A stretch of DNA of 64,000 nt, taken from positions 73,328-137,327 of the forward strand of contig CAYRYE010000001.1 of NCBI GenBank assembly GCA_964428655.1, in the 5' to 3' direction. The notes under the pieces were generated by a model, which was not told the origin of the DNA, made no database searches, and was given only the letters and a program-made list of their open reading frames with translations. Position 1 is the stretch's first letter, and the number at the start of each line of letters is the position of its first letter. This DNA comes from an uncultured Gammaproteobacteria bacterium (GTDB lineage Bacteria; Patescibacteriota; Microgenomatia; UBA12405; JAHJSD01). A program made the translations under genes and the position numbers. This document shows, piece by piece, positions 3,834 through 17,064 of the stretch.

Positions 3834-4295
3834 AAAATTTACCGAGGAGATCTTTTGGGTGCTACATATATACCAACAACATTTGAGTTAAGTTCAATTG
3901 GCCCTTGTTCTCTTCTACTTCTGACGATGTGCCCCCTTACTCCTGGAGCCACTCTTACGTCCATTTTACCCCTTCCTTGCTCTTGTCTTGTTTGAATGGC
4001 TTCTTGAATCATCCGTCGATTATCTCTAGAAACATGGCCAACTAAAGCTCAGTTTCTTGGATCTCCCTCTAGGTTTACGCAAACCCTTTGGAAACCATGT
4101 TTATGTTCCATCTGTTTTCCACTTGCGTTTACATATGTTCTTGACGTAAAAACTCTTTTTATTAAATTTTCCTGCATGTTTTTTTGTGTTTAATAATCTT
4201 TATCTTTGTCCTTAATTAGGGGAATTTTACTATAAGTTTTTCTATTTTGCAATTGCTGCCAAGCGCCTTGTTGTTATAATGAGTAAATTGACTTA

Positions 4296-5123
4296 ATGGA
4301 TAGCAGAAGAATAGACTATTCGAAAATTTATTCTCCGAGCAGGTTGAGTATGTTTGCTCAGTGTCCCAAGCAATACTATTTTTACTATCTTGACCCTACT
4401 TATAGCCGAATGAAAAATGAGCTTAAAAAGCTGCCGGAGAATATTTGGAGCTTTCACACTTTGGGAAAAGCTGTTCATAATGCCATTACCCTTTTTTATC
4501 ATTCTCCTCCAGAACAAAGAACACTAGCGCAACTCAAAGAATATCTTAAGCAGGCTTGGCGCAGCGAAGTGATGTGGAATAAGAAGCCGCCCTTGGGGGA
4601 ATGGGGCGGATTTGAAAGCCTTGAACAAGAAAGAAAAATTTATGGAGAGGCGCTTCTAATGCTGGAAAACTTCTTTAAAATGGCAGAAATTGATTCTGAA
4701 TTGGAATACTTACCCACCCGAGATTTTAGACAGTCAATTGAAGATTACCAAAAATTAATCATTCCCCTTTCAGAAAATTTTGATATCAGTGGCAAGTTCG
4801 ACTTAATAGTTGGGGATAATAATTGCCTTCACATAATTGACTTTAAAACCAGCAAAAGAGAGGGTGATGATCATTTTCAATTAAGATTTTATAAACTCCT
4901 GGCTGAAAAGAATTTTAAAAAAGCGGTCAAAAAAGCCAGCTTTTACTTTTTGAGAGCTGGTAAGAAAAAAGAATTCGATTTGGAAAAAGAGGCAGAAAGA
5001 ATCAAAGAAGAAATATTAAATAAAATTAACCAGATAAAATTAACCAAAGATTTTGAGCAAAGACCAGGAAAACTTTGTAAGTTTTGCTTATTTAGAACTT
5101 TTTGTTCTGAGCAAGAAGGGTAA
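4296..5123 (+). CDS. PD-(D/E)XK nuclease, RecB/Cas4-like with Fe-S cysteines
   Basis: Has the Cas4/AddB-type arrangement: N-terminal Cys (FAQCPKQYY), a C-terminal CxxC...C (CKFCLFRTFC), a nuclease core GKFDLIV...HIIDFKTSK (D...D-x-K) and a QxxxY motif (FQLRFY). Confidence 0.7.
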   Translation: MDSRRIDYSKIYSPSRLSMFAQCPKQYYFYYLDPTYSRMKNELKKLPENIWSFHTLGKAVHNAITLFYHSPPEQRTLAQLKEYLKQAWRSEVMWNKKPPLGEWGGFESLEQERKIYGEALLMLENFFKMAEIDSELEYLPTRDFRQSIEDYQKLIIPLSENFDISGKFDLIVGDNNCLHIIDFKTSKREGDDHFQLRFYKLLAEKNFKKAVKKASFYFLRAGKKKEFDLEKEAERIKEEILNKINQIKLTKDFEQRPGKLCKFCLFRTFCSEQEG

Positions 5124-8122: not shown

Positions 8123-10411
8123 TTATGGGATGAGAGTTGGAGCTGGAGTGGGCATGAGCTGACAATGTTTAGTTGGCTGAGTTCCGGCAATAAAATATTC
8201 CTCAATAATTTTGGGACAATTAAAACAGGGCAAGGTACCAGTTGTTTGGCAAATAGCGGTTTTAACAACATTATCTGGCACTAGCCAATCTTCTTGGGGA
8301 TAGCTGTTAAGAAGTTGTTTCATAATTTGATGCCAAATCGGAGTAGCGCCGGTAACGCCGGAAGCAACATGACTCATGGGTGAGTTGTCATTGTTGCCTA
8401 CCCAAACAGCAGTCAGAAGAGATGGAGTATAACCGATACACCAATTATCCCGTAAGTTATTAGTAGTTCCTGTTTTAACAGCCACTTTATAATTTGGGAT
8501 TTGCAAAAATGAGTTATTGCCGAAGGCTAAAGCTCTAGCCTGATTATCAGTTAGAATATCAGTGAGAGTAAAAGCGATTCCTGGATCTATAACCTGTTGG
8601 TTGGGACAGGAATTGTTTGTTAGGCAAGGGTTTTGAAAGATAGTTTTGCCCCGATGATTTTTAATTTCTAAAATGGGGTTGATATCTACCTTTTTTCCTA
8701 GATTGGCAAGGATGGAGTAAACCTGGGCTAGGTCAATCATTTTTACCTCTCCTCCACCTAAAGTCAAAGAAAGACCAAATCTTGAAGGATCATCCCAAGT
8801 GGTGATTCCTAAAGTTTGACCCATTTTGATCATCCTATCAACCCCGTAAGAAGAAAGCACTTTTACGGCTGGAACATTAAATGAAGAAGCTAGAGCTGTT
8901 CTAAGGGGTAAATTGCCATGAAATTGGTTGTCATAGTTTCGAGGTGAATATGGCGGCTGTCCTGGTATTCGATAGGTAATTGGTGTGTCGGGAATAATTG
9001 TTGCCGTTGTGTAGCCCATTCCCAGGGCAACAGCATAATTGATCACCTTGATTGCTGACCCAGGTTGGCGGGGTCTGAGAACAACATTAACATTGCCATC
9101 ATTTTCAAAATTAAAGTAATCTCTAGAGCCAGCCATAGCTAATACCCCGCCCGTTTTAGGATTAATTATCAGAGCCGCGCCATTTTTAATGTTAAGGTGG
9201 GTTAGCTTATTCAGTTCGTCCCTCACTGTTTTTTCAACCAGTTGTTGAACTGTCCAGTCTAGGCTAGTGGTTACTTCCAATCCTCCTTGTTCAACTGCTT
9301 GCTGACCATAGTAATCAACTAATAAATCTTTGATATAGAAAACAAAGTGGGGGGCCTTTATTGAGTCTCGTTTTGGAATGAACCGAAGAGGGGTGGTAAT
9401 AATTTCAGCCGCTTCTGAGGGATTAATATAATTTGTTTTAACCATTTCTCTGATAACTTGCTCTTGCCGCTTTTTTGCAAATTCAGGATAAGCGCCAAAT
9501 GGTGAATATTTGGTTGGGGCTCGAGTGAGACCAGCCAAAAGAGCCGCTTCAGCAGGATTAATTTCCCAAACATGTTTGCCAAAATATTTTTGGGCTGCCT
9601 CTTCCGACCCGTAAGCAGTGCCTCCATATGGTACTTCGTTAAAATACATTTGGAGAATTTCGTTTTTAGAAAATTTCATCTCTACTAATAGAGCCAGAAT
9701 AGCTTCTCTTATCTTTCTTTTCCAAGTTTTTTCTGAGTTTAATAAAGCATTTTTAACTAATTGTTGGGTTAAAGTTGATCCACCCATTTGAGGTTTATCG
9801 GGGTTTAAAAAGTTATGCTTAAGCGCCCGCAAAATTCCTCGCCAAGAGAGGCCGCTATGAGAGTAAAATTCTTTATCTTCAATGGCTATTGTAGCAGCTA
9901 TCAGATGTTGAGAAATGTTTTCCAAAGGAACCAGAGTTCGGTTTTGATCTCGATAAATTTTATAGAGAAGAATCCCTGACCGATCGTAGATTTTAGTAGT
10001 TAAAGAGGGCCTTCTTTGAATCAGATGATCTGGCGATGGAAGATCGCGAAAGAGACTAATAATGATTCCAGCCAAGATTAAGATAATCCCTATAATAATT
10101 AAAATCAGGGCGAGCTTTTTGTTTCTTAAAATTATTTTTTCTTTTTTTCTCGGCCGACCTCTTTTTCTCTTTTTTAATTTTTTAAATATTTTTTGAATTT
10201 TAAGTTTTATTTGTTTTCTGAAATTTCTTGGCCGACCCGGACCTCTTTTTTTGCCTAGCTTAATTTTGGGCCAAAGATCAGTAAGAAGATAACTTCTTAC
10301 TGAATTAAGAAGATTTTTCAAGAATTTAATCAGTTTTCCAAAAATAGTCAGGGAAAAGATTATTAATTGATATCCGGGCTTACCTAAGAAAATAAGAATT
10401 TCTCGAACCAT
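8123..10411 (-). CDS. class A penicillin-binding protein (PBP1A-type transglycosylase/transpeptidase)
   Basis: GT51 motifs EDKEFYSHSG and GGSTLTQQLVKN. Transpeptidase motifs SxxK (GSAIK), SFN and KTGTT. N-terminal Lys/Arg-rich cytoplasmic tail with RGRP repeats, then a TM. Confidence 0.9.
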   Translation of the reverse strand: MVREILIFLGKPGYQLIIFSLTIFGKLIKFLKNLLNSVRSYLLTDLWPKIKLGKKRGPGRPRNFRKQIKLKIQKIFKKLKKRKRGRPRKKEKIILRNKKLALILIIIGIILILAGIIISLFRDLPSPDHLIQRRPSLTTKIYDRSGILLYKIYRDQNRTLVPLENISQHLIAATIAIEDKEFYSHSGLSWRGILRALKHNFLNPDKPQMGGSTLTQQLVKNALLNSEKTWKRKIREAILALLVEMKFSKNEILQMYFNEVPYGGTAYGSEEAAQKYFGKHVWEINPAEAALLAGLTRAPTKYSPFGAYPEFAKKRQEQVIREMVKTNYINPSEAAEIITTPLRFIPKRDSIKAPHFVFYIKDLLVDYYGQQAVEQGGLEVTTSLDWTVQQLVEKTVRDELNKLTHLNIKNGAALIINPKTGGVLAMAGSRDYFNFENDGNVNVVLRPRQPGSAIKVINYAVALGMGYTTATIIPDTPITYRIPGQPPYSPRNYDNQFHGNLPLRTALASSFNVPAVKVLSSYGVDRMIKMGQTLGITTWDDPSRFGLSLTLGGGEVKMIDLAQVYSILANLGKKVDINPILEIKNHRGKTIFQNPCLTNNSCPNQQVIDPGIAFTLTDILTDNQARALAFGNNSFLQIPNYKVAVKTGTTNNLRDNWCIGYTPSLLTAVWVGNNDNSPMSHVASGVTGATPIWHQIMKQLLNSYPQEDWLVPDNVVKTAICQTTGTLPCFNCPKIIEEYFIAGTQPTKHCQLMPTPAPTLIP

Positions 10412-11070: not shown

Positions 11071-13278
11071 TTATTGGGCGTTTACTCTTACTGTTTCTTC
11101 GCGGGGAGGACAGTCAAAGCAGATGATTGTGCCTAGGGGATCAGTGACAATCTGATGCTCTTGCCATTCAAGGTTTCCTGCCTCGCCGGCCGGCAGGTCT
11201 TTTTGTTCTCCAGGTTGAACTGGCCAGCCAGTATCTTTATCAATTAAAACCGCTTGACGAATTGGTTTTGATTTAGGAACTGTGCCTTGAATGAAAAATT
11301 CATAGCGCGATTCGCAACCTTCTTCCGGCGGAAGAGTCCCAGTTAGATTGCAAACGCTGGCGCCGGTGATATTATTCGGCTTAGTAGCCCATTCTTGCTT
11401 TTCGTCTTTTAAGATATATGTCATCACTTTATTCCATATTGGTGAAGCGCCGGTAATTCCGGAAGCAACCCAACCCATAGGAGTATTGTCATTGTTTCCT
11501 ACCCAAACAGCAGCCACATAGCTTGGAGTGTAACCAATAGTCCAATTATCTCTTTTGTCATTAGTCGTTCCTGTTTTAACTGCTACTTCAGGGTGATTTT
11601 TAACAACTAATAGTGAACTGGATCCAAAAGCCGCTGATCTGGCATTATTATCAAGAAGAATATGGCCGACTAAGTAGGCGGCTTCCATTGGCAAAACTCG
11701 CTTACCGGTTGACTCTTGGCGTTCTTCAAGAATTTTACCTTGACGATTTTCAATCTTAAGAATAGAAACTAAGTTTTTTCTCACTCCTAGGTTGGCTAAG
11801 GTACCAAAAGCCGTGGCCATCTCAGTCATTTTTACTTCTCCGCCGCCCAGTGTTAAAGAAAGGCCAAATTCTGAGGATTCTCTAGCGCTTAAATTATCTA
11901 ATCCCATCGCCGAAGCAGAGGTGATAAAAGTTTTGATCCCATTCAAAGCGAGGACTCTGACTGCTGGAATGTTGAAAGAATTGCCTAAGGCAAAACGAGC
12001 CTGGGCTGGACCATGGAAAAGGCCGTCGTAATTTCTAGGACAATATAGCTTTGGCCCGCCAGTGAAACAGGTTGGAACATCAGCTAAAACGGTTGAGGGA
12101 GTGATTTTTTTCAAAGCAAAACCAGTGGCATAATTTAAAGGTTTAATAGCTGATCCGGGTTGACGCAGGGCCGTGGTGACATTAAATTTCCCATCAATAT
12201 CATCGGCAAAATAATCTTTTGAACCTACCATGGCCAGAATCTCGCCGCTTTTAGGATTAGTGACCAGGACGGCGCCGTTGGAAACCTTGGCTGTTTTTAA
12301 TTTAGCCATTTCGGAAGCCACAGTGGCTTGGGCAAATTCTTGAGTATCAAGGTCTAAAGTAGTAGTGACTTTAAATCCGCCCTGAGTAGCCATTTGCTGG
12401 CCGTATTTTTCAGTTAATTGTTCCTTGACATAAAAAACAAAATGGGGTGCTTTTATCTTGGTTCCCGGACTGGCAAAGTTTATTTTTTTTTCTTTAGCTT
12501 TTTGATAAGTTTCTTGGTCAATTTTCTCTAAGTCTTTCATTAGTGATAAAACTACTGTCTGTCGATTTTTGGCTCGATCAGGGTGAATAAACGGAGAGTA
12601 GGTGGTTGGGGCGGCTGGTAGCCCGGCTAAAAGAGCTGCTTCAGCCAAAGTTAATTCTTTGGCGCTTTTACCAAAAAAGGTGCGGCTGGCGGTTTCGATT
12701 CCGTATGAAGTTCCTCCGTAAGGAATTTGATTAAAGTACATTTCTAAGATTTGATCTTTAGAATAAAGGGCTTCAGTTAGGGCCGTTAAAATAGCCTCTT
12801 TGATTTTTCTAGTTAGAGTTCTTTTAGGAGTCAGAAGGACATTTTTAACTAACTGTTGGGTGATAGTTGACCCACCTTGAAGTTTACGGCGAAAAACGAT
12901 ATTGATGAAAGCTCGACTGATTCCTCTTAGGTCAAAGCCAGAATGCTGATAGAAATTCTTATCCTCAATTGCTAAAGTGGCATCAATTAGATGTTGGGGC
13001 AGTTCATCTAATTTGATTAGAATTCGATTTCGCTCACTGTAGATTTCATAAAGCAGTTCTTCGTTACGATCATAAATCTCTGTTGAAGCCGGATAGGGGA
13101 AATCGCTCAGTCGTCGTGGTGAGGGCAAGGAATTAAGGATAAAAATAAAAAAACCTGTTCCCAACAAGAAAAGACCAACCAGTATTGGTTTTTTAAAATA
13201 GCCAATTAATTTAACAATTTTAATTAAAATTGACCTTTTGATAATTCTCCTTTTTTTCTTAGATTTCTTTTTGGCCAT
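11071..13278 (-). CDS. class A penicillin-binding protein (second PBP1A paralog)
   Basis: EDKNFYQHSG, GGSTITQQLVKN, RQPGSAIKP, GNSFN and KTGTT motifs, plus a C-terminal extension of about 100 aa. Confidence 0.9.
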   Translation of the reverse strand: MAKKKSKKKRRIIKRSILIKIVKLIGYFKKPILVGLFLLGTGFFIFILNSLPSPRRLSDFPYPASTEIYDRNEELLYEIYSERNRILIKLDELPQHLIDATLAIEDKNFYQHSGFDLRGISRAFINIVFRRKLQGGSTITQQLVKNVLLTPKRTLTRKIKEAILTALTEALYSKDQILEMYFNQIPYGGTSYGIETASRTFFGKSAKELTLAEAALLAGLPAAPTTYSPFIHPDRAKNRQTVVLSLMKDLEKIDQETYQKAKEKKINFASPGTKIKAPHFVFYVKEQLTEKYGQQMATQGGFKVTTTLDLDTQEFAQATVASEMAKLKTAKVSNGAVLVTNPKSGEILAMVGSKDYFADDIDGKFNVTTALRQPGSAIKPLNYATGFALKKITPSTVLADVPTCFTGGPKLYCPRNYDGLFHGPAQARFALGNSFNIPAVRVLALNGIKTFITSASAMGLDNLSARESSEFGLSLTLGGGEVKMTEMATAFGTLANLGVRKNLVSILKIENRQGKILEERQESTGKRVLPMEAAYLVGHILLDNNARSAAFGSSSLLVVKNHPEVAVKTGTTNDKRDNWTIGYTPSYVAAVWVGNNDNTPMGWVASGITGASPIWNKVMTYILKDEKQEWATKPNNITGASVCNLTGTLPPEEGCESRYEFFIQGTVPKSKPIRQAVLIDKDTGWPVQPGEQKDLPAGEAGNLEWQEHQIVTDPLGTIICFDCPPREETVRVNAQ

Positions 13279-13304
13279 TTATTTCTTTCGCAGTGTAGCG
13301 AAGG

Positions 13305-13390
13305 CGGAGGAGGCGGGATTCGAACCCGCGTAGCCCAATTAGGGCTCAGGATTAGCAATCCTGCGCAATTGACCTCTATGCGACTCCTCC
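13305..13390 (-). tRNA. tRNA-Ser (anticodon GCU), type II with long variable arm
   Basis: Reverse complement folds as acceptor GGAGGAG/CTCCTCC, anticodon stem CAGGA/TCCTG with loop TTGCTAA, variable arm GCCC/GGGC, and T-arm GCGGG-TTCGAAT-CCCGC. No encoded CCA. Confidence 0.85.
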
Positions 13391-13429
13391 CGTTTGACTT
13401 AGGATTAGCGTTATTCTATCATTTTCTCA

Positions 13430-13984
13430 GTGTCTAAATCAAAAACTCCCAGGCCAGAAACTGTTGATCGCCAACCGCTAGAGGTACTCCCAGTAAAAGA
13501 GGAAAGGGTTCTTTTTGAGTGGAAGGCCTTAGAAAGGCCATATCAGCGGAAAGATAAGGAATTTTGGACTACAGTTTTGTCTGTTCTTGGTCTAGTTTCT
13601 TTGATTTTATTTTTTGTTAAAGAATGGTTCCTAATTGCTGCCTTGGTAGCTCTGGTTTTTCTTTATTATGTTTTAACAACAGTTCCTCCTCAGAAGGCGA
13701 AATACAAACTAACTACTCGGGGGATATATTTTTCTCCTAGTCAGAGAATTGATTGGGAAGTGCTTCGCCGGTTTTGGATTGACGAAAAATGGGGACATTC
13801 TCTTTTGCACCTTGAAACTTGGCTCAAATTTCCCCGAGTGATTAGTTTGGTATTTTCCAAAGCAGAAGGGAAGAAAATTCTTGAGATTTTAAGAAAATAT
13901 ATTCCTCAAGAAAAGACTTCACCCAATTTCCTTGATAAATTCTCCTCTTGGCTTTCTAAAAAATTTCCTCTAGAAACCAAATAA
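13430..13984 (+). CDS. hypothetical membrane protein
   Basis: 184 aa with two central hydrophobic helices and no recognisable family. Confidence 0.5.
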   Translation: MSKSKTPRPETVDRQPLEVLPVKEERVLFEWKALERPYQRKDKEFWTTVLSVLGLVSLILFFVKEWFLIAALVALVFLYYVLTTVPPQKAKYKLTTRGIYFSPSQRIDWEVLRRFWIDEKWGHSLLHLETWLKFPRVISLVFSKAEGKKILEILRKYIPQEKTSPNFLDKFSSWLSKKFPLETK

Positions 13985-14001
13985 ATGATAAAATAGGCTA
14001 T

Positions 14002-14073
14002 GTCCCTGTAGTTCAATGGATAGAACATCGGTTTCCGGAACCGAAAATGGGGGTTCGATTCCCTTCAGGGATA
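14002..14073 (+). tRNA. tRNA-Arg (anticodon CCG)
   Basis: Acceptor GTCCCTG/CAGGGAT, D-arm GTTC...GAAC, anticodon stem TCGGT/ACCGA with loop TTCCGGA, and T-loop TTCGATT. Confidence 0.85.
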
Positions 14074-14130
14074 CTATTTCTCCTTTCATTTAGGAGCTCT
14101 GCTAGAGAGGTTGATAGATAGGGGTAATTA

Positions 14131-15186
14131 ATGTATAGTGACTTTATGAAAAGGGTTTTTCTTAAAAAACATGTTCGTGAAGTGTACTTTAAGAAAATAA
14201 AGGATGTTTCTAGGATAAGTTGGAGTATTTTAGCCAGAAAGTTGGGTTATTCAGAAAGGAATTTATTTGATTGGCGCATTGGAAAATATAGCATGCCAAA
14301 AAAGGTCATCACCGAGATAGAAAATTTATTTAGTGTTTTCCCCAAAGAATTAAGCGAGAAGTCAGAGTATTGGCACACAAAGATGGCTGGGAGATTGGGA
14401 GCGGTTACTAGAAATAAAAAGTATGGTAACCCGGGAACCAAAAAGGGTAGAAAAAAAGGTGGAGAGAGATCAATGATCACTCATAAACGTGATAATACTG
14501 GTTTTGTTATAGAAAAAAATATTGTTATCCCTAGAAGATCAACAATTCTTTCTGAATTCATTGGTATTGTGCTAGGTGATGGAAGTATTTCTAATTACCA
14601 GGTTACAATTTATCTAAATCTGTCTGATGATTATAACTATGCACTTAGTCTAATTTCTCTGGTCAAAGATTTATTTGGCATTGACGTTTCTGTCTTAAAA
14701 AGAAAAGAAATGTCTGTGATTGCTTTAATTATCTCTTCGAAGCAGTTAGTGAAATTTTTAGTTGGAAAAAACGATTTAACTATAGGTAATAAAGTTAAAA
14801 ACCAGATAAGGATTCCATCATGGATAATGACCAAGAAGTGCTGGCAAGCAGCTTGTTTACGGGGGCTTTTTGACACTGACGGTTGTGTCTATCTTGATAA
14901 TCATGTAATAAATAAAAAAGTCTATAAAAATTTAGGTTTGGTTTTTAGTTCTTCATCTCGGCCGCTACTTGAAGATATTAATGCTAGTTTGATTGTAAAT
15001 TGCTTTTCTCCTACCGACTCGCATGGTGGGAACAAAATAATGTTAAGGAGGGAAAATGAAATAACCAGATTTTTTGCTAAAATAAAACCTAGAAATCCCA
15101 AGCATACAAAAAGGTTTAGAAAGTTTATGAGGGAGAGGTACCGAAGTGGACACAACGGGACTGCCTCGAAAGCAGTTAGAGATTAA
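14131..15186 (+). CDS. LAGLIDADG homing endonuclease (double-motif) with N-terminal HTH-like region
   Basis: Two LAGLIDADG-type motifs about 100 aa apart, IGIVLGDGSI and LRGLFDTDGCVYLD. The last 55 nt of the ORF overlap tRNA-Ser(CGA). Confidence 0.75.
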   Translation: MYSDFMKRVFLKKHVREVYFKKIKDVSRISWSILARKLGYSERNLFDWRIGKYSMPKKVITEIENLFSVFPKELSEKSEYWHTKMAGRLGAVTRNKKYGNPGTKKGRKKGGERSMITHKRDNTGFVIEKNIVIPRRSTILSEFIGIVLGDGSISNYQVTIYLNLSDDYNYALSLISLVKDLFGIDVSVLKRKEMSVIALIISSKQLVKFLVGKNDLTIGNKVKNQIRIPSWIMTKKCWQAACLRGLFDTDGCVYLDNHVINKKVYKNLGLVFSSSSRPLLEDINASLIVNCFSPTDSHGGNKIMLRRENEITRFFAKIKPRNPKHTKRFRKFMRERYRSGHNGTASKAVRD

Positions 15187-15222
15187 TTCTCTACGTGGGT
15201 TCGAATCCCACCCTCTCCGCCA
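15132..15222 (+). tRNA. tRNA-Ser (anticodon CGA), type II, CCA encoded
   Basis: Acceptor GGAGAGG/CCTCTCC, anticodon stem ACTGC/GCAGT with loop CTCGAAA, long variable arm TAGAGA/TCTCTA, T-arm GTGGG-TTCGAAT-CCCAC, then G-CCA. Confidence 0.85.
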
Positions 15223-15271
15223 ATCAATGTTAGGCTCGCGCTTTGTGAAAGATTGGTATAATTGATGTCAT

Positions 15272-16345
15272 ATGACTCTTTTTTTTAATGCCGTTTTCCT
15301 TTTGGCCGGTGCTATTATTGGTGCCGGAGTTTTTGCTCTTCCTTATGTTTTTTCCCGTTCAGGTTTTTTACCAAGTTTAGTGGGAGTTTTGTTTTTAGGG
15401 GCGCTGATGACGGTTTTAAATCTTTTTTATTGTCAAATTATTCTTAAAACTAAAGGCGATCATCAGCTGCCTGGTTATGTTAAAAAATATCTGGGAGAAA
15501 AGACAGCTAAACTGGCTGTTTTGGCAATGTTGATTTCTATCAATGGGGCCTTACTGGCCTATGTTATTTTAGGTGGTGATTTTTTAGCTTTATCATTTGG
15601 GCAGTTAGCAGCCAGCTTTTATAATCTTTGTTTTTATGTTTTAGGAATTTGGTTTTTTTGGCGAGGATTTAAATTTTTGACAAAAATAGAATTTTGGCTA
15701 ACAGTTGGCCTGATTGTTTTAATGATTGCAATTCCAATTTCCTTGACTGGATTTATTCATGCAGAAAACTATGTTTTAATTACCAGCAAACCTTTGTTTT
15801 TTTGGGGAACAGCTTTGTTTGCCTTGACTGGTTTTTCTGTTATTCCTGAAGTTGAAGAAATTTTGTGCAAAAAGCGCCATTTATTAATACCAACAGTGAT
15901 TGTTGGCAGTTTGATTCCAATTATTCTTTACTTTGCTTTTGGCTTTAGTGTTTGGGGTGTTAGCGGCGCGATGACCACCGCTGATGCTCTTTCCGGCCTA
16001 GTTACTTTTTTTCCGTCTTTAATTCGTTTCGGAGCAGTTGTTGGTTTATTAGCCTTAATGACTTCGTTTTTAGCTTTGACTAATGTTGCTAAAGAGGTTT
16101 ATTTTCGTGATTTAAAATTTAAGGAGAAAAAGGCTAAATTTTTAGCTGTTCTTCCATCGTTTTTTGGTGTCTTTTTGTCAATCGAGGGTTTTATTAAAAT
16201 AATTTCTTTCACTGGCGCAGTTGGTCTGGTAATTTCAGGCAGTTTAATCTGTTTGATGTTTGCCAAACTACAGCCAAGATTTAAATGGCTGGCCTGGCTG
16301 GTTAGTTTATTTTTTATTTTAGGTGCGATAGCGAGTTCGCAATAG
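15272..16345 (+). CDS. amino-acid permease-like membrane transporter (HAAAP/aromatic amino acid permease-like)
   Basis: About 10-11 TM segments. The N-terminal motif AGAIIGAGVFALPY is typical of Trp/Tyr/Ser-type HAAAP permeases. Confidence 0.55.
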   Translation: MTLFFNAVFLLAGAIIGAGVFALPYVFSRSGFLPSLVGVLFLGALMTVLNLFYCQIILKTKGDHQLPGYVKKYLGEKTAKLAVLAMLISINGALLAYVILGGDFLALSFGQLAASFYNLCFYVLGIWFFWRGFKFLTKIEFWLTVGLIVLMIAIPISLTGFIHAENYVLITSKPLFFWGTALFALTGFSVIPEVEEILCKKRHLLIPTVIVGSLIPIILYFAFGFSVWGVSGAMTTADALSGLVTFFPSLIRFGAVVGLLALMTSFLALTNVAKEVYFRDLKFKEKKAKFLAVLPSFFGVFLSIEGFIKIISFTGAVGLVISGSLICLMFAKLQPRFKWLAWLVSLFFILGAIASSQ

Positions 16346-16347
16346 AA

Positions 16348-17064
16348 ATGAATCAAAAGATTCCTGAATTATCAATTATTATTCCTGCCTACAATGAAGA
16401 GAAGTTTATTTCAAAATGTTTGGATTGTGTTTTGAAACAGAAAACAAATATTCCTTATGAAGTGATTGTTGTTAACAATAATTCTAGTGACAGAACCGGG
16501 GAAATAGCGATTGGTAAAGGAGTGAAAGTTGTTGATGAAAAAAAACAGGGAGTGACGGTGGCAAAAAATACTGGGGCAAAAGTGGCCCGCGGAAAAGTTT
16601 TAGTTTTTGTGGATGCTGATTGCTTGGCCCCTTCAAGCTATATAGGGAGAATAATAAAAAATTTTTCCACTCATCCTGAGGCAGACGTTGTTGGCGGCCC
16701 TTATATTTATTATGACGGAGGGGTGTTTATTAGGTGGATAACAGAAAGACTCAATTATTATTATTGGTACTTTAGGCTAATTAAATTGTTTTTTGGTGTT
16801 GAAGCATGTTCGGGTGGAAATATGGCGATAAAAAAGAATGTATTTGATAAAATTGGTGGCTTTAATGAAAAACTCGAAGAACTTACTGACATTGTTCCTC
16901 CCGATGATCTGGAGATTTGCATAAGGCTTAAAAAATCAGATTTTAAACTTTATTATGACAAAAACAATAAAGTTTTAAGCTCTTTTAGAAGGGCTAAAAG
17001 ATCGCCAATAAAAGATTCTTTGAAAAGAGCCTGTTTATCATTAAGACTTCTAATATCGGGTTGA
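16348..17064 (+). CDS. family 2 glycosyltransferase
   Basis: LSIIIPAYNEE...VIVVNNNSSDRT...VFVDADC (GT-A fold with DxD). Confidence 0.8.
   Translation: MNQKIPELSIIIPAYNEEKFISKCLDCVLKQKTNIPYEVIVVNNNSSDRTGEIAIGKGVKVVDEKKQGVTVAKNTGAKVARGKVLVFVDADCLAPSSYIGRIIKNFSTHPEADVVGGPYIYYDGGVFIRWITERLNYYYWYFRLIKLFFGVEACSGGNMAIKKNVFDKIGGFNEKLEELTDIVPPDDLEICIRLKKSDFKLYYDKNNKVLSSFRRAKRSPIKDSLKRACLSLRLLISG

Follow-up and report, generated by a model that had tools for sequence, protein, structure and literature searches.

T-even phages have free-standing endonuclease genes, seg and mob, whose products belong to the GIY-YIG or HNH type; one of them, SegB, is encoded in the tRNA gene cluster of T4. Elements with a tyrosine integrase target tRNA genes and restore the 3′ end of the tRNA from attP, and WhiA is a domesticated LAGLIDADG protein. 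In fungal mitochondria, mobile open reading frames (mORFs) found in atp6 of Allomyces macrogynus and in atp6, atp9, cox2 and nad3 of Glomus bring along a duplicated gene terminus: the open reading frame (ORF) was inserted with a foreign copy of the C-terminus, and the native terminus was left as a diverged fragment (PMC3630166). Here we analyze a LAGLIDADG homing endonuclease (HE) gene lying between a tRNA-Arg and a tRNA-Ser gene in a 64,000-nucleotide stretch of contig CAYRYE010000001.1 (“the window”), from a bacterium placed in the Microgenomatia branch of the Patescibacteriota. We favor the interpretation, with a probability of roughly 0.7, that positions 14075-15131 plus the 5′ part of the tRNA-Ser gene make up a homing-endonuclease cassette specialized on tRNA-Ser genes, inserted in the D-loop and equipped with a replacement 5′ part. 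The link of this nuclease family to tRNA-Ser, the tRNA fragments upstream from its ORFs and a distinctive D-arm in the linked tRNAs are the reasons for thinking that the cassette entered a tRNA-Ser gene and rebuilt its 5′ end.

The likeness to the mORFs lies in an intron-less LAGLIDADG (or GIY-YIG) ORF residing in a host gene, what in the present case would be a replacement for the end of that gene, and the displaced native end nearby as a diverged, unused fragment; moreover, ORF and host-gene sequence may share a reading phase. This layout, an ORF between a functional terminal segment and a displaced, diverged copy, is found in the window and in 34 of 80 loci examined below. In contrast to the mORFs, the host is a bacterial tRNA gene rather than an organellar protein gene, the 5′ and not the 3′ end would be replaced, the ORF takes its stop codon and its -35 box (in some members, called type B below, its start codon) from the tRNA, and the protein has an N-terminal helix-turn-helix (HTH) domain. 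The seg and mob genes resemble the present one as intron-less nuclease genes beside conserved genes, presumed to spread by break repair with co-conversion of the flanks. They sit between genes without rebuilding a neighbor, however, whereas the window element encodes a LAGLIDADG enzyme and would rebuild a tRNA; phage relatives of its protein are distant and not tRNA-linked. As for integrase islands, these also use a tRNA gene as a conserved landing site and carry a displaced tRNA part while the gene stays functional, but the window element has no integrase, spans 1.06 kb with a single nuclease gene, affects the 5′ end, and its two tRNA copies are not identical att repeats.

The genes flanking the nuclease gene are tRNA-Arg(CCG) upstream (14002-14074; 3′ end ..CAGGGATAC) and an intact tRNA-Ser(CGA) with encoded CCA downstream (15132-15222), both on the + strand. 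ARAGORN and Rfam (67.1 and 56.1 bits, respectively; tRNA gathering score 29) recognize each as complete and uninterrupted, confirming this part of the original prediction. Between them, the 1057 nt from 14075 to 15131 hold a single + strand ORF of at least 40 amino acids, that of the nuclease. The longest frame in a mechanical ORF list extends from 14131 to 15186 (+), or 351 codons. Its end coincides with positions 1-55 of the tRNA-Ser (15132-15186; 18 codons plus TAA). The 55-nt overlap originally described is therefore correct, but its placement, ending at the anticodon stem, is not: the ORF crosses the anticodon loop and the TAA at 15184-15186 falls in the loop of the variable arm.

LAGLIDADG genes of these bacteria have usually been reported inside rRNA insertions and introns; a 2024 survey of the candidate phyla radiation (CPR) found them in 16S and 23S rRNA insertions, often group I or group II introns (PMC11270868). 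By analogy, the ORF might lie in a group I, group II or other intron that is spliced out of a tRNA, an explanation to which we give next to no chance. No group I or group II intron family, and no structured RNA other than tRNAs, matched the 12500-16500 interval at E≤10 in Rfam; both tRNAs score well as uninterrupted genes, and the upstream tRNA fragment described below is too decayed to serve as an exon. The initial view that the gene is not intron-encoded thus held up. The CPR rRNA insertions and the present element have the host group and the nuclease superfamily in common and differ in their site (rRNA genes versus tRNA-Ser). The survey also mentions CPR LAGLIDADG_3 proteins whose N-terminal, non-domain region is variable, and the word “tRNA” is absent from its main text (PMC11270868).

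The association with tRNA-Ser was assessed in the 80 best of at least 456 confirmed genomic loci of relatives which, together with the window, made a set of 81, all scanned for tRNAs. The hosts belong to many Patescibacteria classes, to Omnitrophota, Elusimicrobia and Peregrinibacteria, and to a few bins with other labels. A co-oriented tRNA-Ser gene lies directly 3′ of the ORF in 79 of the 81 loci, with anticodon CGA in 38, GCT in 21, GGA in 13 and TGA in 7. As to the two exceptions, one contig (L059) stops 3 nt past the ORF, and the HE of the other locus (L045) groups directly with that of L051, which has a tRNA-Ser. Upstream neighbors vary, including tRNA-Arg, tRNA-Ala, an opposite-strand tRNA-Glu, another tRNA-Ser and protein genes. 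Persistence of the link whatever the upstream neighbor indicates that the association is with tRNA-Ser and not with tRNA clusters as such. As a control, none of 24 distant relatives in viral contigs has a tRNA within 1.5 kb. A phage origin of the element was considered and rejected, the viral-contig relatives being only 26-32% identical, over the core only, with no tRNA nearby.

In a neighbor-joining tree, the HE proteins group by tRNA-Ser isoacceptor with few switches, while the Omnitrophota copies group by phylum across three isoacceptors. This pattern fits site-specific inheritance combined with occasional jumps to other tRNA-Ser genes. One locus (L044), where a CGA-clade HE adjoins a tRNA-Ser(TGA) with a CGA-type D-arm, was examined as possible proof of module transfer. 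It is inconclusive, because tandem tRNA-Ser(CGA) and tRNA-Ser(TGA) genes, as present in its sister L055, could recombine unequally and produce the same chimera.

The region upstream from the nuclease gene holds a second tRNA-Ser sequence. The window fragment, GGAGCTCTGCTAGAGAGGTTGAT (14093-14115, +), matches tRNA-Ser positions 1 to about 23, that is, the 5′ strand of the acceptor stem and the D-arm, ending in the D-loop; it corresponds to positions 1-23 of the functional gene (15132-15154). An 18-nt spacer (14075-14092) separates it from tRNA-Arg; this spacer is likewise 18 nt in L003 and about 80 nt in L094. The latter locus, which encodes the closest distinct homologue (64% identity), carries GGAGGGTTGCCGGAGTGGTTGAA about 30 nt before the ATG. 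This string, too, consists of a tRNA-Ser acceptor 5′ strand and D-arm with no other tRNA part following, and the window fragment aligns to it. Of the 23 positions of the window fragment, 17 agree with the consensus drawn from other fragments. With a position weight matrix (PWM) built from 10 other remnants, it scores 15.9 bits, a value not reached in any of 20,000 shuffles and the best on the + strand of the 64 kb; with a PWM from tRNA-Ser genes not linked to an HE, it scores 11.7 bits, against a 99% control quantile of 8.3.

Fragments are widespread in the family. The PWM from unlinked tRNA-Ser genes detects one in 34 of 80 loci, as compared to 0.8 expected by chance (the threshold being reached by 1% of control windows). 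Similarly, an nhmmer search of the 250 nt upstream from the ORFs with a tRNA-Ser 5′ profile yielded 27 matches outside annotated tRNAs, against 4 weak ones in controls of equal length; of the matches that begin at profile position 1, most end around position 22. The fragments occupy two fixed registers, starting at -53 or -6 from the ATG. Type A, to which the window and the majority of the CGA clade belong, has a fragment that begins at -53 and stops some 30 nt short of the ATG; the register of the window (-53 to -30) recurs in L002, L025, L009, L019, L006, L004 and L007. In the 17 type B loci, predominantly with anticodon GCT or TGA, tRNA positions 7-9 themselves form the ATG (GGAGAyATGGCTGAG..), and the ORF opens with five or six codons (M-A-E-x-F/Y-K) taken from the fragment, at tRNA positions 7-22. 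Two loci (L027 and L067) have a type B fragment plus a second, fresher one further upstream, a nested arrangement consistent with what repeated insertion events would leave.

The fragments might alternatively stem from an old tandem duplication of tRNA-Ser, in which the upstream copy decayed and an unrelated endonuclease gene landed in between. Tandem tRNA-Ser genes are indeed common in these genomes (L035, L042, L050, L055, L069 and L070), and a complete second tRNA-Ser lies upstream from the HE in L015, L040, L079 and L077. Yet the partial fragments stop near position 22 or earlier and never reach the anticodon arm, their distance to the ATG is fixed, and the arrangement recurs for four isoacceptors in several phyla, which independent duplications and insertions would not produce. 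We consider this explanation very improbable.

The third line of evidence for a cassette concerns the functional tRNA. The upstream fragments carry an ordinary (“naive”) D-arm, TGCnnGAGyGGTTGA. A different type, TACCGAAGyGGTyrTAACGG, is found in 25 of 39 HE-linked tRNA-Ser(CGA) genes as opposed to 1 of 8 unlinked ones, and the D-arm variant of the window tRNA-Ser(CGA), TACCGAAGTGGACACAACGG, is typical of the linked genes. Pairwise comparisons point the same way. Between the window and L094, 50 of 70 tRNA-Arg positions, 70% of the HE DNA and 89 of 91 tRNA-Ser positions are identical; between the window and the HE-less L089, the corresponding figures are 59 of 72 for tRNA-Arg and 71 of 91 for tRNA-Ser. 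Hence, the tRNA-Ser tracks the HE and not the neighboring tRNA-Arg, which suggests that the cassette would bring its own tRNA 5′ part and possibly more. As a separate observation, unlinked genes with a TACCGAAG..TAACGG-type D-arm may be footprints of lost cassettes or products of gene conversion among tRNA-Ser genes.

Relatives sharing the neighborhood were retrieved through orthologues of the permease encoded downstream from the window tRNA-Ser. The shared gene order, where it is visible, is PBP, tRNA-Ser(GCT), a gene of about 180 codons, the tRNAs, permease, DnaG and sigma-70. Every examined related genome with this neighborhood lacks the HE and has an intact tRNA-Ser. In L089 and L090, tRNA-Arg(CCG) directly abuts tRNA-Ser(CGA); the gap is 2 nt in L088 and 1 nt in L087 (2548-2713, -), where the pair forms an inverted block with respect to its flanks. 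Scanning metagenome contigs for the junction pattern yielded, in addition, an HE-less tRNA-Arg(CCG)/tRNA-Ser(CGA) pair 3 nt apart (L092) and a tRNA-Arg(GCG) beside a tRNA-Ser(TGA), again with no HE (L093; 2674-2833, -). The nuclease gene is thus a presence/absence character among relatives, and the comparison of tRNA spacing proposed at the outset supports an insertion, the two tRNAs being 0-3 nt apart where the nuclease gene is missing. The two pattern-scan loci were not accepted as same-species empty sites, as the tRNA-Ser of L092 matches that of the window at only 66 of 91 positions and L093 is an Arg(GCG)/Ser(TGA) pair. Juxtaposition of a tRNA-Arg and a tRNA-Ser within 0-1 nt recurs across isoacceptors (Arg GCG with Ser TGA; Arg CCG with Ser CGA).

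Five Logan contigs (L082-L086) with an identical permease start at window position 15195 or 15197. These breaks were not retained as evidence of polymorphism for the HE: the HE-bearing contig (L091) ends at 15222, and the shared part comprises only the T-arm, the acceptor strand and CCA, so that the breaks look repeat-induced. Contigs of this organism break within the T-arm and acceptor region of tRNA-Ser(CGA) in several independent read-set assemblies, probably because of a 26-nt stretch common to other tRNA-Ser genes in the samples. Many loci of the family in public genomes are also at contig ends.

The data above bear on the idea, put forward in the original prediction, that the gene is a plain free-standing HE between tRNA-Arg and tRNA-Ser, comparable to T4 seg genes. 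On this view, the enzyme would cut somewhere close by, its gene would run into the tRNA through the accidental loss of a stop codon, and the tRNA-like upstream string would be meaningless. A 1057-nt insertion exactly at the junction does describe the difference from HE-less relatives, and 30 of the 79 linked members have no overlap with the tRNA. Furthermore, when a duplicated tRNA 5′ end was sought by exact-word matching, the window gave no significant result (GAGAGGT, p ~0.25), although this test proved too insensitive and was superseded by the profile and PWM analyses. The latter show that the fragment is real (0 of 20,000 shuffles in the window; 34 of 80 loci against 0.8 in the family). 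Nor does a simple spacer insertion explain the tRNA-Ser link, which holds in 79 of 81 loci next to a variety of upstream neighbors and is not tied to one junction, the common D-loop end point and fixed registers of the fragments, the 17 loci whose ATG and first codons are tRNA positions 7-22, or the distinctive D-arm. A spacer insertion with incidental overlap therefore appears unlikely, and this part of the prediction is not supported as it stood.

The overlap itself was compared across the family. In the 79 linked loci, the distance between the ORF end and the tRNA-Ser start varies from a 63-nt gap to a 148-nt overlap; overlaps occur in 49 loci and in all three frames. The conserved portion of the protein ends at N322-x-K324-H325 plus one helix. 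Beyond that, homologue tails are recurrent peptides (ERYRSGHNG.ASKA.., GEVPKWS, GEVA, GGVA) that represent the tRNA-Ser 5′ end translated in different frames, so that it is the tRNA that determines the tail, which shows no conservation at the protein level. This answers a question attached to the original prediction, whether the last 18 codons are conserved among homologues. In the window protein, the last 10 residues (342-351) are predicted to be disordered (pLDDT <50). In the commonest class, the D-loop sequence TCA TAA supplies the stop codon of the ORF. Under the cassette interpretation, the overlap would be a built-in feature of the element and not an accident. For annotation purposes, this accounts for an oddity seen hundreds of times, in which ORFs labeled “LAGLIDADG family” continue into tRNA-Ser genes and end, for instance, in GEVPKWS.

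The two catalytic motifs of the predicted protein are FIGIVLGDGSI (nt 14554-14589) and LRGLFDTDGC (nt 14857-14886). A Pfam LAGLIDADG_3 match (E=1e-9; 38.9 bits against a cut-off of 22.5) confirms the original identification as a two-motif LAGLIDADG protein; only LAGLIDADG families matched as catalytic domain, with no Pfam match for GIY-YIG or HNH domains in the window nuclease. The acidic residues that end the motifs are D150 (GIVLGDG) and D250 (GLFDTDG). All 80 translated homologues share D150, G151, K221 and W231; motif 2 having served as the search pattern for homologue loci, its own invariance is partly circular. The start codon is probably ATG 14146 (M6) rather than 14131, where the ORF opens and where the gene was first thought to begin, since all homologues begin M-x-R-V/I at the former position, an identical database protein (P0001) has 346 amino acids, and ATG 14131 lies inside a promoter-like spacer. 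The gene would then span 14146-15186 (+) and encode 346 residues. Its N-terminal region (residues 6-125 in the 351-residue numbering; 14146-14505) comprises the HTH domain and a basic helical hairpin, and is followed by the two-domain LAGLIDADG core (residues ~138-333; 14542-15129).

The HTH assignment, already suggested by the original prediction, is weak by sequence (Pfam YdaS HTH, E=0.078, with other weak precomputed HTH families on some homologues) but coincides with a confident three-helix fold in the AlphaFold (AF2) model. Built from 34 homologues, this model (pLDDT 89.7) features the HTH domain, the helical hairpin and the two-domain core. The N-terminal helices are at 13-27, 31-38, 42-50, 57-67, 81-98 and 104-120, with pLDDT mostly above 80; the hairpin after the HTH domain includes the conserved motif YGNPGTxEGRxKGG, and conserved residues of the region are W48, G99, G102, T103, R107, G110 and G111. 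The N-terminal region is presumed to be an extra DNA-binding module. A Foldseek search of the PDB returned 123 matches at E≤0.001, those listed being LAGLIDADG enzymes, maturases and intein endonuclease domains. The top match is I-Tsp061I (2dch; E=1e-11, target-normalized TM 0.75), and the TliVMA intein endonuclease domain and I-DmoI are also found. The model has the pseudo-dimeric alpha-beta-beta-alpha-beta-beta-alpha fold. A sequence search of the PDB gave only marginal intein-domain matches (E=0.006), so that the fold search was needed. In NCBIfam there was no family-level model, only sub-threshold intein-containing ones. I-DmoI and I-Tsp061I, archaeal, intron- or intein-associated LAGLIDADG_3 enzymes, thus provide the closest structures and the same monomeric two-motif fold. 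Identity is only 15-21%, however, and the present protein differs in having no intron or intein, an N-terminal addition of about 130 residues and a bacterial host (Patescibacteria and others). From its residues, the protein looks like an active rather than a degenerate nuclease. Its family is large: 260 relatives were found in 5.8 billion proteins, mostly 330-350 amino acids long and largely unnamed or called “LAGLIDADG family homing endonuclease”, and an exhaustive search of 50%-identity cluster representatives returned 302 clusters at E≤1e-30 and 1028 at E≤1e-10.

Nearly all of the 81 copies (80) are intact. The sole clearly interrupted one has an early in-frame stop (L035, position 4166; bin labeled Planctomycetales). 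One Shapirobacteria locus (L001) has a second nuclease paralogue at 8394-8945 (tblastn E=1e-20, query residues 5-182), about 3.4 kb downstream from the first copy (3928-5080) and running off the locus. In the first copy, tRNA-Arg(GCG) ends exactly at the start of homology to residue 23 and the ORF reads through the whole tRNA-Ser; this copy may be 5′-truncated.

Preservation of intact copies despite only 35-45% identity could also be taken to mean that the protein has been domesticated for a host function on tRNA-Ser, as a transcription factor or a precursor-binding or -processing protein, and is kept by its client gene. An extra HTH domain, a conserved promoter geometry (see below) and the ancient age of all lineages, with no recent transfers seen, would suit such a role. 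On the other hand, distribution is sporadic, and the examined relatives with the same neighborhood have an intact tRNA-Ser and no gene. Neither the catalytic motif 1 Asp nor the Lys varies, and the WhiA Pfam models score below their cut-offs (18.5 and 13.4 bits against 23.2 and 23.4). WhiA has degenerate LAGLIDADG domains and a C-terminal HTH and is universal in its clade, whereas the window protein retains catalytic residues, has its HTH at the N-terminus and is absent from close relatives. Moreover, a regulator need not adjoin different isoacceptor genes in different genomes, and truncated or interrupted copies exist (L001 and L035). Domestication strikes us as decidedly improbable.

If the cassette interpretation is correct, the tRNA sequences would also contribute to expression of the nuclease. 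A blind scan predicted a sigma-70-like promoter at 14111-14139 (+), with TTGATA (14111-14116) and TATAGT (14134-14139) separated by 17 nt (10 of 12 matches). The -35 box derives from GGTTGA in the D-loop of the fragment, and ATG 14131 falls in the promoter spacer. The -10 box ends 6 nt before ATG 14146; hence the predicted mRNA would be leaderless, starting at the AUG. A geometry score of at least 9/12 is obtained for 27 of 75 family starts versus 48 of 2417 random ATGs from the same loci, and a score of at least 10/12 for 15 of 75 versus 10 of 2417. The -10-like box TAAAAT at 13989-13994 (+), read from the sequence 7 nt upstream of the tRNA-Arg +1, is the probable promoter of a tRNA-Arg/HE/tRNA-Ser unit; in the HE-less L089, TGGTATAAT lies 8 nt upstream from its tRNA-Arg. 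A scan of the + strand found no terminator-like site between 14075 and 15131. A dedicated promoter just upstream from tRNA-Ser, in the 3′ end of the ORF, was looked for and discarded for lack of enrichment over controls. Together, these findings suggest that nuclease and tRNA most likely form one transcription unit. In the window permease gene, TGGTATAAT ends 9 nt before the ATG (15250-15274), and promoters in this organism seem to be placed for transcripts starting at or next to a start codon or mature tRNA end.

The following scheme can be envisaged for the cassette. The nuclease would recognize about 20 base-pairs around the D-arm of a naive tRNA-Ser gene and cut. The break would be repaired from the occupied allele, flanking tRNA sequences (here probably also tRNA-Arg on the left) providing the homology, and repair would copy in the ORF along with the replacement tRNA 5′ part, while the native 5′ part, now displaced, would persist upstream as a dead fragment. 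The rebuilt tRNA would be functional and its differing D-arm would probably spare the occupied allele from cutting. ORF and tRNA would be co-transcribed, from the tRNA-Arg promoter and from that of the cassette. RNase P cleavage at 15132 would free the tRNA and at the same time strip the mRNA of its stop codon, so that full-length protein could be made only from unprocessed transcripts, keeping nuclease levels low. Extended to the family, this becomes a comprehensive proposal: that of an ancient, large group of gene-drive-like elements in Patescibacteria, Omnitrophota and other phyla whose nuclease cuts the naive D-arm and whose cassette substitutes a resistant version for the 5′ part, or almost the whole, of the tRNA, reuses the tRNA as -35 box, start or stop codon, rides on tRNA transcription and has RNase P as a brake. 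We advance it tentatively, as slightly less probable than its negation.

Several points weigh against the cassette interpretation. The HE lineages are all deeply diverged (35-45% identity), with no near-identical copies seen in different hosts and thus no sign of recent mobility; likewise, no polymorphism for presence of the HE was found within one species. Cleavage specificity, target site, self-immunity and the RNase P consequences are what we infer from sequence, just as the promoter, the leaderless mRNA and the non-stop mRNA are predictions from its geometry. The PWM did not detect fragments in 46 of 80 loci, notably the short Parcubacteria forms adjoining tRNA-Glu. In the window, the fragment stands 18 nt from tRNA-Arg even though the two tRNAs are 0-3 nt apart in HE-less relatives, a spacer that needs to be explained by the history of the donor allele. 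In type B loci, a conserved TATAAT upstream from the fragment implies that the inherited unit extends further left, making homing through a 22-nt left arm insufficient. Finally, the D-arm difference could be lineage variation: the tRNA-Ser of the HE-less L089 (3415-3499) also has TACCGAAG, part of the linked D-arm type, and some unlinked tRNA-Ser(TGA) genes, in L070 (5043-5133) and L015 (3821-3909), carry the linked D-arm.

A published description of the tRNA-Ser link was not found by full-text searching, whose coverage is incomplete, so that a prior description is possible. The cassette interpretation would explain how an HE could persist in an essential and very short RNA gene without an intron or intein, namely by carrying a replacement for the part it displaces, and would extend the mitochondrial principle of the mobile ORF with a duplicated terminus to bacterial tRNA genes. 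Should the comprehensive proposal be true, no earlier homing system would have been shown to rebuild a bacterial tRNA gene, and the family would offer natural meganucleases against tRNA genes. The cassette interpretation also suggests that a selfish element has a part in driving the way tRNA-Ser sequences evolve in these small genomes. The predictions are testable, in particular the naive D-arm as target, the resistance of the occupied allele, the leaderless transcript and the conflict between tRNA maturation and translation termination.

Two additional tRNA-Ser genes deserve mention. The window has a further tRNA-Ser(GCT) at 13303-13390 (-), 0.7 kb upstream, with no adjoining nuclease gene, whose position is conserved in HE-less relatives. 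In a Microgenomates locus (L052; 3751-3836, -), ARAGORN identifies a tRNA-Ser with anticodon ACT, located beside tRNA-Ser(TGA) and tRNA-Ser(CGA) genes with an unusual D-arm, GGGCAGGACGGTAATGCG.

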